Shown here: one piece after another, positions 17,929-24,006 of the stretch
Numbering within the stretch: the stretch's first letter is position 1
Layout: each line of letters opens with the position of its first letter
Virus record (IMG/VR): IMGVR_UViG_3300013121_000010
Coordinates: 77,903-141,902 of that record
Reading direction: 5' to 3' (one strand)
DNA from: a virus
Lineage: Duplodnaviria > Heunggongvirae > Uroviricota > Caudoviricetes
DNA length: 64,000 nt
Translations under genes and position numbers: made by a program
Notes under the pieces: model-generated
What the model was told of the DNA's origin: nothing
The model's database searches: none
What the model saw: only the letters and a program-made list of their open reading frames with translations

Positions 17929-18805
17929 AACTTATGTCTTTAAAACTATTTTTACCGTATTCAACCAAATCTTTAATAGCATTTTTGCTTAAAAATAAAC
18001 TTTTCAAAACTAACATTGGTAATTCTCTGTATGTTAAAGCAAGAGAAGGATTATCTACTAATGGCAACACACCTAAATATATAGCTTCCAAATTCCTGTA
18101 ACAATCAATACCATTTCCGCACGGTGATATTACAGTATGATGCTGTGCTAAATCCATCAAGTATTCTTTATAAGGTTTCTTTTCTTCTGCTTTAATTACC
18201 GTTGCAAAATCTGAATTTTGATAGTAAGATTCTAATTCTGCTCTTTCATAAGTGTAATTAGTCCAGTTTACATAAACTAGAGAACGTTTTTGAATATCAA
18301 TATCAATTTGATTTAATATATCATCTTGTGAATTAGCTGGTACTCCAAATGGTATTTGTATTATTCTATTATCATCAATAGTTTGGCAGTTGGTCGTAAA
18401 CCATCTTACTATATTACTAGGAATATTATTAAATGTGTAAGTAGTCCATGCATAACACTTAACTGAATATTTATCACTTAATTTACACTTATCAACATCA
18501 CATCTTGGACCAATATTTATTCCATTATAACCAATTTCCGGTGTAACACACATTCTAGCCCATTTAATTAAATCAAAACACGGTTGATTGTATAATTGTT
18601 CAGTTACACCAAAATCAGAACAAGAGCTAACAACAACAAATTTTAAATATGGGTTTTCTTTACAATACTCAAAGAAACTTTGCATTTCTTCTAGATTAAC
18701 ATGTATAAGACCGCTTTTTGGCTTATCTCCAATCTTATAAACACTATCACAAAGACCTTTATAAGACTCACAAGTTATAATATCTTCTTTTTTTATAGAT
18801 AACAT
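17858..18805 (-). CDS. hypothetical protein
   Basis: 315-aa ORF in an operon with the ATP-grasp gene. Confidence 0.35.
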   Translation of the reverse strand: MLSIKKEDIITCESYKGLCDSVYKIGDKPKSGLIHVNLEEMQSFFEYCKENPYLKFVVVSSCSDFGVTEQLYNQPCFDLIKWARMCVTPEIGYNGINIGPRCDVDKCKLSDKYSVKCYAWTTYTFNNIPSNIVRWFTTNCQTIDDNRIIQIPFGVPANSQDDILNQIDIDIQKRSLVYVNWTNYTYERAELESYYQNSDFATVIKAEEKKPYKEYLMDLAQHHTVISPCGNGIDCYRNLEAIYLGVLPLVDNPSLALTYRELPMLVLKSLFLSKNAIKDLVEYGKNSFKDISYEKVKLSYWKEVFENERLRINVA

Positions 18806-19536
18806 TTATTTACAGCCTCAGCAAATTTAACTCTATCACAAGCATATAATCCAGAAGTGTGAATACTATTATATTCAACAACTTTGTATTCACCGTTTCT
18901 TCTCATACAAACATCAATAATGTAACCCTTTTGAGGATTGAACATACTTATAATTTTTTTTGTATAACCAATAGCTTTATCTGGTACTTTATTATCTATT
19001 TTAACACCTAAAAAATCTCTATATTTAGAACATGTAATTATTTCTTTATTTATTACAACAAATCTATATTCTTCCTGTATATATTTATCTAGCGGTGACA
19101 CAAAAATAAGTTCACTATTTGGTACTTTTAAAAGTTCACAATTAGCAATAAAATCATTAACTTGTGAAATATGTAAAAGTGTGCCAGGGAAAGTTCTAAC
19201 CGGAGAGATAGGTTTAATAAAAATATCAGTATATATATAATCTTTATTTCTAATTCTATTCTTGAATATTTGATATGTCATTATGTTAGAATAATAATTA
19301 AGTGCTTCATCACCTAATTTACCAACATAAGTAAGATAGTCTAAATTTTCACATAATTTTTTTCGATAATAAACTAAAGCTCCGTTTATACTAGAATAAA
19401 CAAAACGTTTAGATTTTTCTGCTCTAGAATAATCAATTATATCATGGTAAGAAACTAACTTATAAGGTGTTTTAGTATCTTCTAGAGCTTGACACATAAG
19501 TTCAGATTCTAAAAAGTCTTTTTCAACTAACCACAT
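18793..19536 (-). CDS. ATP-grasp fold protein
   Basis: EYRFVVINKEII and IIDVCMRRNGEYKVVEYNS resemble ATP-grasp C-terminal motifs. Confidence 0.45.
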   Translation of the reverse strand: MWLVEKDFLESELMCQALEDTKTPYKLVSYHDIIDYSRAEKSKRFVYSSINGALVYYRKKLCENLDYLTYVGKLGDEALNYYSNIMTYQIFKNRIRNKDYIYTDIFIKPISPVRTFPGTLLHISQVNDFIANCELLKVPNSELIFVSPLDKYIQEEYRFVVINKEIITCSKYRDFLGVKIDNKVPDKAIGYTKKIISMFNPQKGYIIDVCMRRNGEYKVVEYNSIHTSGLYACDRVKFAEAVNKCYL

Positions 19537-19939
19537 TTTCCACCTTGTAAATATATACTGGCTTACCTAATTTCTTCATATAATTAATCATGTGAGCAGT
19601 TCCACTACTTACACCATCCCATATAGCTAAGCAAGCATCAGCAAAATCACCCATTTTAATATTTCTATCAAGTCCAGCCCTAGCATTGTAATAACCTTCA
19701 TCATCGCCCGGTCTAACATCTACTATAGCACCCGGAGCTTTTAAGTCATGCCATAAAGCCTGGAAAACTTGATATTTTATACCATTTTCCTTTGCATACC
19801 TTTCGCCTAACTTATCAACGCCTTTTGCTCCACCACTAACTATTAAAGTGGCTTTTTTATGAGTATTAGACTTTTTAATTGCGTCTAAAACTATATTGTA
19901 GTCTGTTATTGAACGACTACCGCAAATTATTATTTTCAT
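19523..19939 (-). CDS. SLOG/DUF2493-like nucleotide-binding protein
   Basis: IICGSR...VSGGAKGVD Rossmann-like SLOG pattern. Confidence 0.4.
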   Translation of the reverse strand: MKIIICGSRSITDYNIVLDAIKKSNTHKKATLIVSGGAKGVDKLGERYAKENGIKYQVFQALWHDLKAPGAIVDVRPGDDEGYYNARAGLDRNIKMGDFADACLAIWDGVSSGTAHMINYMKKLGKPVYIYKVENVVS

Positions 19940-20216
19940 AAATTGTAATCTCTTTTGAATTTGGAAGAATAATTAATCCATAATCCCATTCTTGTAATAA
20001 GTAAAAAATACACATTGATATATTTATATCATTTGCTATACTTTCACTTACTAAAATTTCAAACTCTCTAGTTATTTCACAAGCATTATTTTTAAGATAG
20101 TCCTCACAAAAACTTTGTAAGTCACCGTGCAAATATTTAGAACGCCATTCGTTTGGAAGCTTTTCTTCCATAAGTTTGGTTACATGAGCTAAAACTTCAC
20201 TAGACGCCTGCGGCAT
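19917..20216 (-). CDS. hypothetical protein
   Basis: ORF only. Confidence 0.3.
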   Translation of the reverse strand: MPQASSEVLAHVTKLMEEKLPNEWRSKYLHGDLQSFCEDYLKNNACEITREFEILVSESIANDINISMCIFYLLQEWDYGLIILPNSKEITIYENNNLR

Positions 20217-21261
20217 TTCTTATACTCCTTGAACTCAAATCTACAGGAACAAAATCTTCTTGAAATTCAAAGAAATTCTCATAACCACTAATAAGCTTTT
20301 CATTACCTCTTGGGAAAACAGCAAATTTGTTATTGTATATAAAACAATATTCAAGTAATTTACCTAATGATTCTTTATGTCTTATTATTCTATTAGCAGT
20401 ATCAACACCTACTAAATAGGTAGAATTTATTGGGTATAAGTGAAATTTATCTATAAATAAAGGAGCTTTAGTAAAACAAACAGCATTTATATTATTTTCT
20501 TTATACAAAACACTTCTATTTCTATAATCAAGATAATCAAGATTAGGTTTATCGAAATTTTGTACAGATATGTCTAACGTTACTTTTTGTTTAAATTTAT
20601 TAGCCGAATAATTTATTATAGCACGATGACCATCATGTAATGGATTAAAAGAACCTGAATATATAAGATTGCTGCATTTTTCACTATTTATAATAACTTG
20701 CTTAAGAGCAAACTGTTCTTTAGTATCAAAAAATAATCTTGGTGTATCTTCTTCGTGCTGGAAATAGAATTTTTCAGATTTTACACAATCCCATTCATCT
20801 TCTGATAAATGAAAAGTTCCCATTTCAAGACCATCTAGAATTACTTCACTTACTAATTCTTCTTCTTCTTGTCTGCTTCTATTTTCAAGCAATTTAAAAC
20901 TTGTACTACAAATAACTTCACGTTCTAAATATGTAATGTGAAATGAGTGTTCTCTACCAACCCTCTCTACATTACTAGAACGCAAACTTGCACAACAAGC
21001 AAGAGAAACGCACTCATTGAAATCATAACCCAAATCTAACATCTTTTGCATACCGGCCATTGCAAGTTGTCTTGATGTTAGTTGTGAATTATATTTTTCA
21101 GGTTTAAAACCAAGAAAATCATCTACACATTTTGTAGAATATGGAACGTAAGCACCGGCAAAATAGCTTGACGCACCACCATTTCTTAGTATTTTACCTA
21201 TAGCTTCTGTGCCACCGCCAGTAATAGTCAGAAAAAGTTTTTTATCCATAATTAATACCAT
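20200..21261 (-). CDS. nicotinamide-nucleotide adenylyltransferase domain protein (NatV-like)
   Basis: GSFNPLHDGHRAII HxGH nucleotidyltransferase motif in the C-terminal half; lies beside nadV. Confidence 0.65.
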   Translation of the reverse strand: MVLIMDKKLFLTITGGGTEAIGKILRNGGASSYFAGAYVPYSTKCVDDFLGFKPEKYNSQLTSRQLAMAGMQKMLDLGYDFNECVSLACCASLRSSNVERVGREHSFHITYLEREVICSTSFKLLENRSRQEEEELVSEVILDGLEMGTFHLSEDEWDCVKSEKFYFQHEEDTPRLFFDTKEQFALKQVIINSEKCSNLIYSGSFNPLHDGHRAIINYSANKFKQKVTLDISVQNFDKPNLDYLDYRNRSVLYKENNINAVCFTKAPLFIDKFHLYPINSTYLVGVDTANRIIRHKESLGKLLEYCFIYNNKFAVFPRGNEKLISGYENFFEFQEDFVPVDLSSRSIRNAAGV

Positions 21262-21525
21262 ATTAGATTATTGAATAGTTATCTCATAGCCGCGATTCTG
21301 TTAATGTTTATGGTCGCCCATATAACATCGTTTAATATTTATCTGTTTAGTAAACTAAACCGGAGTATTAACTTCCGCGCCTTAACCCGAATATCATAGG
21401 CCCGCAATCCGCCTAATTCTGTTTAAGTTGCTGCCATCTGCGTGATACAAACGAAACCACGATTAAAACGGGTTTCTCTCACGGTCTGCGGAGCAGTCAC
21501 GAACTTCCTCGGGGTTTCCCCCGCA

Positions 21526-24006
21526 TTAAACCGAATAACTTTTCAATAATCTTTGCTTTATATAACTTAAATTTGTTGTTTTCTCAGAATATCCATTGTA
21601 AAATACTGTCTGTAAACAATCTAAACTGTTATATATTTTTTTACTTACAGTTTTATAACTCCCGTTTTCTTTAATGAGAGATAAACGCCCTCTTTTTGAA
21701 GTCTTAAAAGATTGTCCAACAGGCTCTTTATAAACATCATATTCTTCATCATCAATTGCAATACTACTACACTTTATAGCAAACCCCATTGTATCTCTAT
21801 CTAATTTTTGTAAAAGACCACCGCCACTTCCAAATGTTAAATTATCTAGTGACCACTTGTTTGTTAAACAAACTGTATCAAGAATATTGAGTAAACTATT
21901 TCTATTAATTCCATCACCCTGAATAACCCTTACTTTAGGATTTAGAACTTTAAATCCTTTGGAGTTAGTAGTGTAACCAAACTTTTCTCCTAGAACATTT
22001 AAGATTTTAGGTAGAACTTCAAGTGGGTCGCCAGAGTTACCACTAATAGATATTCTATGGTTTCTACGAACTATAATAGCCCCACTAGGAACAGTAACAC
22101 AATATACTTTACCATCATAATTTTTAAAAGTTTTTTCTATACCTTGCCCATCTATAAAATCTTGTTTTATAATATGAACAGTATGTACATCATTAAAAAT
22201 ATCTTTTCTATTATCTTTAGCTATACTGTATTTAGTTTTATACCCAGAAAAACAAGCTAATAATTGCACTATTTCAGCATTAATACCAATAGTTGTATCA
22301 TATTTAAATCTTTTATCACTTCTTCTTGTACCATCCCAATAAGAACACTCTTCTATAAATTGTTGACAGTATTTATAATCTATGTTATTAATAATATCAT
22401 TAACCCATTTAAAATCTTTAAAAATACTAAAAGGTACTTTTACATATATAGTTTTTTGATTCTCTCTTTCTTTTTCTTGATGTATAGAATATTCATAACA
22501 TCCTTCTTCACAAATTTTTATAATACGTTCTATTTTTCTTTGTTTGGTAAAATTAAATCTAATCTTAGTAAAACCATTTTTAAATGAATTTTCTTGATTA
22601 TGATTACTTTCATAAGAACCATCTGCTTGAAACGCTATTTTAATAGCGTGTTCTGGAGTAAATAAAATTGGATTTAAACAAGTTAATTTACCAGCCATTA
22701 TATGATTTCTATCATGGTAATACTTAATATCTTTAGCTTGTTTTACAAATATTTCCCCCTTTTTATTTTTAGTATAACATCTATGATTTGGAGTAACTAA
22801 TAAGTCTACCCCACGTTTATCATTAAAAATACTTACCATTTCGCCAATATAATCTTGGCATATGTATTTTACTGGTTTAACAAACTCTATATTACCATTA
22901 TTATATTGAGCTACATATGTATTAATATTGATACTGTTAAATAACTTCCATCCATCATTTGTTAATATTTCAGTTTTTTCATCATAACAGTCTGGCCTAA
23001 CTACAAGCACACCATCCCTATTTAAAACTTTATCTCTTAGTTCTCCACCCCAAATATTTTCACAAGCATTAAAAATGTCATAGCTATCACTAACACAAGC
23101 AACAAAACCTTCTGGATACACTTTAAGCATATTTCTGTATGCCTCTACTTCTCTGCTTTTACCCCACGAAGTAATAGTTGAATGTTCACTTGCCGGTATA
23201 GAGCTTCCACAACTGGAAGTTGTTTCATCAGCATAATATTCATCTAAAAGTTGAATACCTGCAAGAGTATCAGTACCTTTAAAATTTAATAGGTGAGCAG
23301 CAGCACCAATAGCTGCCGTTTCCATACTAGAAACACCTCTAAAACCGAAATCATGCAGTTTATAATCTACATAACTTTCTGGTTCGTCAGAACTAAGTCT
23401 ATGAAACTTTAAAAGTTTCTTTTTAAGGTAATAAGATTGAGAAGCTACAGTAATAGGATACCAAACTTGCATAAGTAAGGTTTCCAAATAATTTGTAAGC
23501 CAAAAGAACCTATCATCTGTATTTTCAATAATCATTAGGACATTTCCTACTGGAACTACTGAACCTTCTGGAACCGCGTTAATAATAACTGGTAAACGCC
23601 CACCGTATTCTTTATACATTTCAGCCCAACCTTGAGTGTTGAACTTGCAATTTGGCATATATTTAGAATGAAAAGCTTCAGCATCTTTAATATCATTCAT
23701 GTTAAATACATGACCAGTTAAATGCTTTTCAATTAAGTATTGTAGACCGAAAAATACGGTTTCTCCATTACCAAAATCATCTTTACCACCACGAGCTTCT
23801 AAATAAGAATAAATTCCTTTTGTTCCTGGTGGGTATTGCTCATAGTGTGATAACTTATAACCGTCTGTTTTAAGAATTAAGTTCACTGTAAAGTTCCTTT
23901 GCTGAATTTTCCCAACTAAACATTTTAGCAGTTTTAATGCCTTCGGCATTTTCAACGCCTGTCTTGCTCTGTAAGAGATTATACATGACTTCGGCAACGC
24001 TGTCAA
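21526..24006 (-). CDS. nadV: nicotinamide phosphoribosyltransferase (NadV/NAMPT) interrupted by an intein
   Basis: LILKTDGYKLSHYEQYPP N-terminus; the RPD-SGDP active-site motif is split by a 318-aa Hint insertion; the true start is probably an internal Met near 23949 (MPKALK...). Confidence 0.8.
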   Translation of the reverse strand: MTALPKSCIISYRARQALKMPKALKLLKCLVGKIQQRNFTVNLILKTDGYKLSHYEQYPPGTKGIYSYLEARGGKDDFGNGETVFFGLQYLIEKHLTGHVFNMNDIKDAEAFHSKYMPNCKFNTQGWAEMYKEYGGRLPVIINAVPEGSVVPVGNVLMIIENTDDRFFWLTNYLETLLMQVWYPITVASQSYYLKKKLLKFHRLSSDEPESYVDYKLHDFGFRGVSSMETAAIGAAAHLLNFKGTDTLAGIQLLDEYYADETTSSCGSSIPASEHSTITSWGKSREVEAYRNMLKVYPEGFVACVSDSYDIFNACENIWGGELRDKVLNRDGVLVVRPDCYDEKTEILTNDGWKLFNSININTYVAQYNNGNIEFVKPVKYICQDYIGEMVSIFNDKRGVDLLVTPNHRCYTKNKKGEIFVKQAKDIKYYHDRNHIMAGKLTCLNPILFTPEHAIKIAFQADGSYESNHNQENSFKNGFTKIRFNFTKQRKIERIIKICEEGCYEYSIHQEKERENQKTIYVKVPFSIFKDFKWVNDIINNIDYKYCQQFIEECSYWDGTRRSDKRFKYDTTIGINAEIVQLLACFSGYKTKYSIAKDNRKDIFNDVHTVHIIKQDFIDGQGIEKTFKNYDGKVYCVTVPSGAIIVRRNHRISISGNSGDPLEVLPKILNVLGEKFGYTTNSKGFKVLNPKVRVIQGDGINRNSLLNILDTVCLTNKWSLDNLTFGSGGGLLQKLDRDTMGFAIKCSSIAIDDEEYDVYKEPVGQSFKTSKRGRLSLIKENGSYKTVSKKIYNSLDCLQTVFYNGYSEKTTNLSYIKQRLLKSYSV
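22036..22989 (-). mobile_element. intein in NadV with a LAGLIDADG-like endonuclease domain
   Basis: VVRPD + C YDEKTEILTNDGW ... ISISGN + SGDPLEV; FQADGSY LAGLIDADG-like motif. Confidence 0.6.

Follow-up and report, generated by a model that had tools for sequence, protein, structure and literature searches.

In the 64,000-nucleotide (nt) stretch of Caudoviricetes DNA analysed here (hereafter the window; IMGVR_UViG_3300013121_000010, positions 77,903 to 141,902), two genes of NAD salvage are separated by a GC-rich, structured element that, on the comparative evidence described below, probably specifies a small phage-encoded relative of ribonuclease P (RNase P) RNA. The neighbouring genes all lie on the minus strand: the upstream open reading frame (ORF), ending at 21526, is a NAMPT/NadV gene (nadV; PF18127 and PF04095), and the downstream one, starting at 21261, encodes a cytidylyltransferase-like protein of NMNAT type of 353 amino acids (aa) (PF01467), as the initial annotation, made from the letters alone, had proposed. 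The same annotation had placed between them an intergenic element of 264 nt (21262–21525) with about 50% GC. A GC-rich structured element is indeed present: the GC content of this span is 0.432, compared with 0.417 for the whole RNA and 0.307 for the window, and the value of 50% is approached only at the peak (0.46–0.50 in 100-nt windows along the spacer), not by the mean. The minus-strand RNA folded at −87.6 kcal/mol, versus −68.1 ± 4.9 kcal/mol for 200 dinucleotide shuffles (z = −3.94), none of which folded as well. The plus strand folded similarly well (z = −4.12) and, since both strands score alike, the choice of the strand from energy alone was impossible; instead, several covarying helices contain G-U pairs and, therefore, the RNA strand is the minus one, the same as that of the genes.

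While the location of the element was correct, its extent was not. Since a closing helix of 18 base pairs (bp) joins 21535–21552 with 21265–21282, the RNA gene measures 288 nt (21265–21552, minus strand, with RNA position 1 at 21552) and reaches into nadV, the end of which is overlapped by the 5' 27 nt of the RNA (nine last codons and stop codon). At the other side, the 3' end of the RNA lies 3 nt ahead of the first ATG of the NMNAT-like ORF, and a weak promoter-like site was found on the minus strand at 21616–21588. The end of the nadV reading frame, with its nine final codons and its stop, doubles as the 5' strands of helices P1 and P2 (21525–21552; L007:372–398 in the related locus L007), and in L007, where nadV is one codon shorter at its end, the P1 3' strand is changed to match. 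The bases shared by the nadV end and P1/P2 are under coding and RNA-structure constraint together.

The RNA belongs to a family of 24 distinct members. An identical NMNAT-like protein is found on L006, a 99.7%-identical strain, and L007, in which the NMNAT-like homologue is 48% identical, also carries the RNA. Between the window and L007 the identity is 86% for the RNA, 78% for the flanking DNA of nadV and 69% for the NMNAT DNA; being more alike than its flanks, the RNA is, as judged from this comparison, under purifying selection. The NMNAT-like homologues at 30% identity have no such spacer, and among five homologues retrieved from 5.8 billion proteins only the closest, that of L007, has the RNA; the NMNAT-like protein gave one weak tblastn match in phages and none in the IMG/VR protein scan. 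The probes that proved productive were a 20-mer from conserved region (CR) V and two-part patterns. The block AACAGAATCGCGGCTATGAG led in IMG/VR to L013 and L014, and a slightly shorter block led in the JGI metagenomes to L015, L018/L020 and L021, while, among 50,697 phage records, BLAST with short motifs matched DLP6 and LR756501/LR756503 and no others. In the cultured Stenotrophomonas phage DLP6 the member lies, unannotated, at 105774–106019 of KU682439.2; LR756501.1 is a huge phage of 735 kb. By using two-part patterns in IMG/VR we obtained 16 further loci, all genuine members. The precision of the patterns was 17 genuine matches out of 17 in IMG/VR versus 1 out of 42 from 185,579 cellular genomes, and the sole member of cellular origin is a 3-kb contig binned as Roizmanbacteria; the family is thus essentially restricted to large phages. 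Against the 50,697 phage records, blastn with the element and megablast with 20 kb of the window gave no match, the full-length DLP6 and LR756501 elements used as blastn queries retrieved only themselves, and a single 17-mer from CR-I produced, in IMG/VR, only chance matches in high-GC phages.

Most of these loci hold dense arrays of tRNA genes on the same strand, which reach 36 genes in 13 kb. The RNA of L024 begins 1 nt past tRNA-Asn and ends 4 nt ahead of tRNA-Val, that of L036 is separated by 5 nt from tRNA-Gln on one side and by 10 nt from tRNA-Lys on the other, and in DLP6, where it falls within an annotated cluster of 30 tRNAs, it ends 7 nt upstream of tRNA-Arg(CCG); the RNA is not mentioned in the DLP6 paper. 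In the other members with examined flanks, NAD genes do not accompany the RNA, the usual neighbours of which are tRNA genes. In L014 a TATAAT-like box precedes the RNA and its P1 is immediately followed by a U-run, which is the layout of an independent RNA gene. The window itself contains 26 tRNA genes (ARAGORN), all on the minus strand between 10079 and 45521; a 3' CCA is encoded in none of them, the discriminator being followed in almost all by C and then T, whereas the tRNA-Arg gene of DLP6 encodes CCA.

The secondary structure was examined on 21 members, which were cut by script at invariant anchors into blocks of fixed length and aligned by MAFFT into a gapless alignment of 117 columns. 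Paired cells amounted to 93.8%, a value that none of 500 shuffles reached, versus 67.4% in these shuffles and 26–42% when the partner was slid by 1–3 columns, and 213 double-changed cells were observed versus 67 in shuffles. Compensatory changes occurred in all six pairs of P1 (with strands hand-picked, and with unrelated sequences among relatives), in all six pairs of P2 (99.2% of the cells paired), in three of the five closing pairs of P3, in four of the six pairs of P5, of which only the first four are general, in four of five of P15 and in three of four of P16. Moreover, RNAalifold, run unguided on the full sequences after plain MAFFT alignment, recovered P1, P2, P3, P15 and P16, and among the 33 pairs of this result 24 were compensatory. 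P4, of 8 bp with a bulged U, had an invariant sequence and was fully paired (100%) in each of the 21 members. For P6, about 15 different complementary sequence pairs were found, and the mean energy was −11.0 kcal/mol with the own loop versus −6.8 kcal/mol with foreign loops. Two pseudoknots are thus formed at the positions known from RNase P, namely P4, which crosses P2, and P6, which links the P16/17 loop with the nucleotides just past the P5 5' strand. In all 21 aligned members no change was seen in the bulged U, in the AG that precedes it, in ACAGAA or in the AA of J5/15, and the 3' side of L15 read GGG in 20 of them (AGG in L026), the next base being always U. The helix of the reduced specificity (S) domain, outside the counting test, covaries by eye (GUGA/UCAC, GUAG/CUAC, GUGG/CCAC).

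These data also bear on two hairpins pointed out in the initial annotation: CGGGG-GAAA-CCCCG corresponds to P3, present in all relatives, while the local hairpin CUGC-UCC-GCAG was rejected as a real feature, being not conserved, and its bases form the long-range helices P5 and P6. RNAalifold also proposed a possible alternative to the first P5 pair, in which a GC located where P5 meets J5/15 (21430–21431) pairs with a GC after the P15 3' strand (21379–21380), all four positions being invariant; likewise, E. coli rnpB has GC at 246–247 and 300–301.

To place the RNA, we used as comparator the annotated rnpB of E. coli ('RNase P RNA component class A'), the helices of which were checked on the sequence. 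The two RNAs share their start, with P1, the 5' strand of P2, GC and the P3 hairpin in this order. J3/4 and the 5' strand of P4 read GAGGA-AAG-U-CCGGG in E. coli and GAGGA-AGU-U-CGYGA in the phage family. The 3' strand of P4 is CCCGGCUU in E. coli, preceded by ACAGAA and followed by A, and UCGCGGCU, of 8 nt, in the phage. In RNase P RNA of bacterial type A, P4 with its bulged U is built from CR-I (GAGGAAAGUCC...) and CR-V (ACAGAA...GGCUUA), and in both RNAs compared here it consists of 3 bp, the bulged U and 5 bp, or else of 2 and 6 bp, as either of the adjacent U may bulge. The phage P4 aligns without gaps to E. coli 61–75 and 347–361, with differences at paired positions that keep complementarity. 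The 3' strand of P2 lies upstream of the 3' strand of P4, from which the P4 pseudoknot results. P5 directly follows P4 in both RNAs (CUCC/GGAG in E. coli, CUGC/GCAG in the window), and the 5' strand of P6 starts 3 nt after P5 in E. coli and 1–3 nt after it in the phage family, with the same topology (E. coli 82–85 with 276–279). J5/15 is CAA in both, followed by P15 (E. coli 247–249; invariant in the phage family), and the 3' side of L15 is GGGUA in E. coli, where G291–U294 is GGGU, and GGG(U) in the phage family. Directly 5' of the P2 3' strand, J18/2 reads UAGAUGAAU in E. coli and UAGAUAAAU, i.e., UAGAU(A/G)AAU, in the phage, which provides an equivalent of CR-IV. Past the P2 3' strand, E. 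coli has CACGACAGAA and the phage family 4–5 nt and then ACAGAA; at the end, the 3' strand of P1 follows after 2 nt in E. coli and after 2–5 nt in the phage family.

According to PMC4919922, the catalytic (C) domain of RNase P RNA comprises P1/P4/P5, P2/P3, P6/P15/P16/P17 and P18, contains CR-I, CR-IV and CR-V, has in P4 a universally conserved U, and in L15 a GGU that pairs with the tRNA 3' RCCA; all these C-domain features are present in the phage RNA. P5, J5/15, the P15/P16/P17 arm with GGG(U) in L15 and P6 are thus in place, the binding of CCA being only a prediction. A248 of E. coli numbering is reported to contact residue −1 of the pre-tRNA (PMC6582537). The two RNAs differ in the S domain, which in E. 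coli spans 164 nt (79–242) with P7–P14 and in the phage family is reduced to one helix and one hairpin, of about 40–60 nt in most members, and in size and origin, since the E. coli RNA is of 377 nt and cell-encoded, whereas that of the phage is smaller, with P18 variable or absent, and phage-encoded. The features of the window RNA are listed in Table 1.

Table 1. Helices and motifs mapped on the RNA of the window (positions in the window; P, helix; J, joining segment; L, loop).
Feature	Position	Strand	Remarks
P1 5' strand AGAUUAUUGAAAAGUUAU	21535–21552	−	inside the last nadV codons; pairs with 21265–21282
P1 3' strand AUAACUAUUCAAUAAUCU	21265–21282	−	pairs with 21535–21552
P2 5' strand GUUUAAU, includes the nadV stop UAA	21525–21531	−	pairs with 21330–21336
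P2 3' strand AUUAAAC	21330–21336	−	pairs with 21525–21531
P3 hairpin CGGGG-GAAA-CCCCG	21510–21523	−	hairpin in all members; length and sequence vary
J3/4 and P4 5' strand AGGA-AGU(U)CGUGA, bulged U, CR-I equivalent	21497–21509	−	gapless against E. coli GAGGAAAGUCCGGGC
P5 5' strand CUGC	21493–21496	−	partner 21431–21434; pairs 2–4 covary; matches E. coli C75–C78/G243–G246
P5 3' strand GCAG	21431–21434	−	partner 21493–21496
P6 5' strand CCGCA, pseudoknot	21487–21491	−	partner UGCGG 21402–21406 in the P16/17 loop
Reduced S domain: CGUGA/UCACG helix, internal loop GA / GUUUGUA, P12-like hairpin	21441–21483	−	
J5/15 CAA	21428–21430	−	equivalent of E. coli C247 A248 A249; invariant in 21/21 members
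P15 CUUAA/UUAAG, L15 ACA / GGG, P16 GAAU/AUUC, P17 AGGC/GCCU	21381–21427	−	P6 3' strand in the P17 loop
Two hairpins at the P18 position, CGGAAG-UUAAUA-CUCCG and UUUAG-UUUA-CUAAA	21346–21377	−	variable region
J18/2 CAGAUAAAU, CR-IV equivalent	21337–21345	−	family consensus (U)AGAUAAAU
Extra hairpin inserted in J2/4	21304–21328	−	limited to this phage, L006 and L007
J2/4 UAACAGAA and P4 3' strand UCGCGGCU, CR-V equivalent	21288–21303	−	AACAG(A/G)AUCGCGGCUA invariant in the family

Within the family the length is mostly 213–290 nt, up to about 350 nt, and longer still in L021, which bears an ORF insert; the interval between the P5 strands is about 50–70 nt in most members, and up to 191 nt in the presence of insertions. 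The P18 region is missing from L013, L024, L026, L034 and L039. The architecture of the S domain (a helix of 4–6 bp, a loop with 5' GA and 3' GUUnGnA, and a hairpin) is predicted to be alike in most members. Peripheral hairpins are expanded by lineage, the P12-like hairpin being longer by about 130 nt in L013 (L013:3183–3535) and P3 by about 60 nt in L018 (L018:289–605). In L021:551–1144 (Ga0058863_10146724) the P18 region holds an ORF for a GIY-YIG homing endonuclease of 198 aa (PF22945, E = 1e-13), the stop codon of which falls at the J18/2-P2 boundary, with all core motifs intact; an ORF within an RNase P-type RNA gene is unusual.

Taken with the structural mapping, the homology of this RNA to RNase P RNA can be regarded as well supported, whereas its catalytic activity, its protein partner and its benefit for the phage are what we infer. 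We consider it likely that 21552..21265 is a miniature RNase P RNA, homologous in its C domain to the bacterial type A and with a shrunken S domain, which would act as a ribozyme in trans; the suggestion of a small non-coding RNA in the initial annotation was thus right in kind, as this is a conserved, structured and free-standing RNA gene. With less assurance, we are inclined to think that large phages encode in this way an active miniature RNase P, which would mature their tRNA arrays without recourse to the host rnpB, or as a competitor of it, either with the host RnpA or free of protein; this would be the first functional viral RNase P and, with an S-domain stub of about 40 nt, among the smallest of bacterial type. 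In the proposed mechanism the RNA would be co-transcribed with its neighbours, in most relatives with the tRNA array and here by reading on from nadV or from the weak site at 21616–21588; because of the overlap with the nadV stop codon and of the NMNAT ORF only 3 nt further on, the window RNA would be either cut from a longer transcript or made from its own promoter. It would then fold about the P4 pseudoknot and bind phage pre-tRNAs via the acceptor stem, with the CAA of J5/15 at residue −1 and the GGG(U) of L15 on the 3' CCA where this is present. The 5' leader would be removed, most likely by a holoenzyme with the host RnpA, and large phages with 20–36 tRNA genes would gain a tRNA 5'-maturation capacity of their own.

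Several observations weigh against this interpretation. In the S domain, CR-II and CR-III, onto which the T and D loops of the tRNA dock in type-A RNA, are unrecognisable. With the RNase P models RF00010, RF00011, RF00373, RF00009 and RF02357 no match was obtained at E ≤ 10 for the window or for L007, L018, L029 and L035 and, since the Rfam models miss the family, its membership in RNase P follows from structural mapping without a calibrated score. The strands of P1 in the block alignment were picked by hand. P4, whose sole variation is one U-G/C-G alternation, has no covariation of its own, and its invariance is partly due to ascertainment, because the search patterns fixed its sequence. As CCA is not part of the tRNA genes in this phage, L15 could contact CCA here only once it has been added. 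Finally, nothing convincing resembling RnpA was found among the proteins of the window by a crude scan for the RNR motif, for which reason the partner protein is assumed to be host-derived.

The failure of the Rfam models is probably due to the reduced S domain and the variable P18. A cmscan against Rfam 15 (E ≤ 10), covering the element within 1.2 kb and within 311 nt of the window as well as the four relatives named above, found no RNase P, riboswitch or intron, the only significant matches being the neighbouring tRNAs and the remaining ones (E 0.2–9) weak and of unrelated families; of the checks suggested in the initial annotation, the Rfam comparison was thus negative, while conservation and covariation were strong. 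A tmRNA or tRNA-like identity was discarded, since ARAGORN calls nothing at the element. We found no report of a phage-encoded RNase P RNA in the full-text literature, of which most subscription journals lie outside the coverage, and an earlier description is possible.

An unlikely alternative is that the RNA is a mimic or decoy, which would keep the surfaces binding RnpA and tRNA without cleaving, and would sequester RnpA or pre-tRNAs, redirecting or stopping the maturation of host tRNAs. In the holoenzyme structure of T. maritima, P2/P3, J18/2, J2/4 and P15 are reportedly also in contact with the protein, so that their conservation could be read in this sense. The S domain, which contributes to substrate affinity, is largely gone, Rfam gives no match, and the only earlier viral RNase P-like RNA, that of orthopoxvirus, was inactive in vitro (PMC3001073). 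On the other hand, the known roles of several invariant elements (the bulged U with the AG on its 5' side, ACAGAA, and the AA of J5/15) concern only catalysis and the geometry of the active site; the RNA accompanies phage tRNA arrays, with which it is probably co-transcribed, and this would suit a helper of maturation more than an inhibitor; and the type-T archaeal RNase P RNAs are a precedent for a near-total loss of the S domain (PMC4919922). Given the invariant active-site nucleotides and the co-location with tRNAs, a decoy is less economical than an active RNase P RNA.

We regard as improbable, and rank below the decoy, an enzyme derived from RNase P that has moved to another substrate, such as polycistronic transcripts cut at tRNA-like or hairpin sites, mRNAs or non-coding RNAs, by analogy with RNase MRP, which derives from RNase P. 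In this sense could be interpreted the remodelled S domain, whose conserved loop GA / GUUnGnA has no obvious bacterial counterpart, the position of the window RNA between two protein genes with no adjoining tRNA, and the tolerance in L021 of the GIY-YIG ORF. The tRNA-specific contacts, namely the GGG(U) of L15 and the AA of J5/15, are however retained, and tRNA arrays are the strongest genomic association of the family.

Far less probable, and contradicted by the comparative data, is a cis-acting role. The initial annotation had listed a leader or riboswitch of the NMNAT gene, for example one responding to NAD+, and the remnant of a self-splicing element; in fact, the RNA is flanked on both sides by genes of NAD salvage, and only 3 nt separate its 3' end from the first ATG of the NMNAT-like frame. 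However, in L007 the RNA is set apart from the NMNAT gene by an additional ORF of 112 aa, and the homologues at 30% identity are without spacer, therefore the RNA is not a leader tied to the NMNAT gene. The link is also absent in the other examined flanks, L014 has its own promoter-like box and U-run, P1 joins the ends of the RNA, and no expression platform is visible. The NAD+ riboswitches (nadA/pnuC) and other riboswitches are not supported, as there is no Rfam match and the gene context varies. A group I intron, degenerate or not, which should show a P3-P7 pseudoknot core with a G-binding site, interrupt a host gene and pair with its exons through P1/P10, was likewise rejected because there is no Rfam match, no gene is consistently interrupted, the 5' and 3' ends pair, unlike those of group I introns, and the flanks differ in every member; it had been weighed for the GIY-YIG ORF of L021 and for R-element-like motifs of ACAGAC type, and does not agree with the topology.

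Equally hard to sustain, and contradicted by the same comparisons, is an element resembling a miniature inverted-repeat transposable element, with the near-perfect 18-bp terminal inverted repeats as its DNA ends and surroundings rich in mobile DNA (the insertion in nadV, an indel of 1.2 kb, homing-endonuclease genes in relatives), since among members the terminal repeats are fully different yet complementary, with G-U pairs that make sense only in RNA, the interior pseudoknots are conserved, each locus has a single copy and there are no target-site duplications.

Non-tRNA RNA genes in phage tRNA clusters are not new, as phages encode tmRNA and the T4 tRNA cluster holds stable RNAs of unclear role (species 1 and 2), but these have no likeness in sequence or structure to the RNA described here. 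It is known that the isolated C domain of a bacterial RNase P RNA cleaves pre-tRNA if RnpA is given, and that type T RNase P RNA is active. The latter (also named type P; RF02357), from Pyrobaculum and the Thermoproteaceae, is missing nearly the whole S domain (PMC4919922; PMC3579882) and is treated as a recognised type of RNase P RNA (PMC4919922). Like the phage RNA, type T retains the C domain and has nearly lost the S domain; by contrast, type T comes from archaea, whose proteins are its partners, while the phage RNA has P6, a P15-P16-P17 arm with a loop of the CCA-binding type, the P18 position and a remnant of the S domain. The RNase P-like RNA of orthopoxvirus (camelpox) has 'some' structural similarity and does not process pre-tRNA in vitro (PMC3001073); it is virus-encoded, as that of the phages, but belongs to a eukaryotic virus, whereas in the phage family, linked to tRNA arrays, no C-domain motif is lost. 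PMC10879173 describes theta (HDV-like) ribozymes beside the tRNAs of gut phages, implicated in tRNA maturation. They are phage-borne and tRNA-linked as is this RNA, but small, self-cleaving and of another fold, and they act in cis, in contrast to the trans-acting, RNase P-type activity proposed here.

If an active phage RNase P RNA is confirmed, tRNA 5' maturation would join the translation functions brought by large phages, which are known to encode tRNAs, tmRNAs, aminoacyl-tRNA synthetases and ribosomal proteins, in the case of an enzyme, RNase P, regarded as universal in cells. This raises the question of whether the host RNase P is insufficient or unsuitable in infection, for example because of the capacity needed for 20–36 extra tRNAs, the shut-off of the host, a defence targeting tRNA processing, or odd pre-tRNAs. 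The family would also represent a natural minimisation of the type-A ribozyme, which sets apart dispensable elements (P7–P10, P13/14 and often P18) from those that tolerate no change. While RNase P RNA itself is known, its phage-borne form with a minimised S domain, a family absent from Rfam 15, would be new; it is unannotated in phage genomes because the current Rfam models miss it. The cultured and tractable pair of DLP6 and S. maltophilia D1571 makes the hypothesis directly testable.

Some further observations concern the surroundings of the RNA. In DLP6, ARAGORN calls, with an asterisk flag, a tmRNA-like gene with tag peptide ANDDSFAPMAIAA (L022:2808–3151, about 102807–103150 of KU682439.2), which is located about 3 kb upstream of the RNA, mostly in a gap between annotated coding sequences, and is unannotated in GenBank. 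In the window, nadV (21526–24006, minus strand) contains an in-frame insertion of about 306 aa (approximately 22072–22989), which is missing from L006, where NadV is of 468 aa. This insert, which begins with Cys after ...VVRPD and runs to ...ISGN followed by Ser, resembles an intein hosted by a phage NAMPT, and its weak Intein_splicing match (E = 1.8e-4) falls below the cut-off of Pfam. Moreover, a segment of 1.2 kb at 18897–20106 is without counterpart in L006, and its ORFs encode an ATP-grasp protein of the R2K clade (247 aa, 18793–19536) and a YspA/SLOG (DprA-like) protein (138 aa, 19523–19939).

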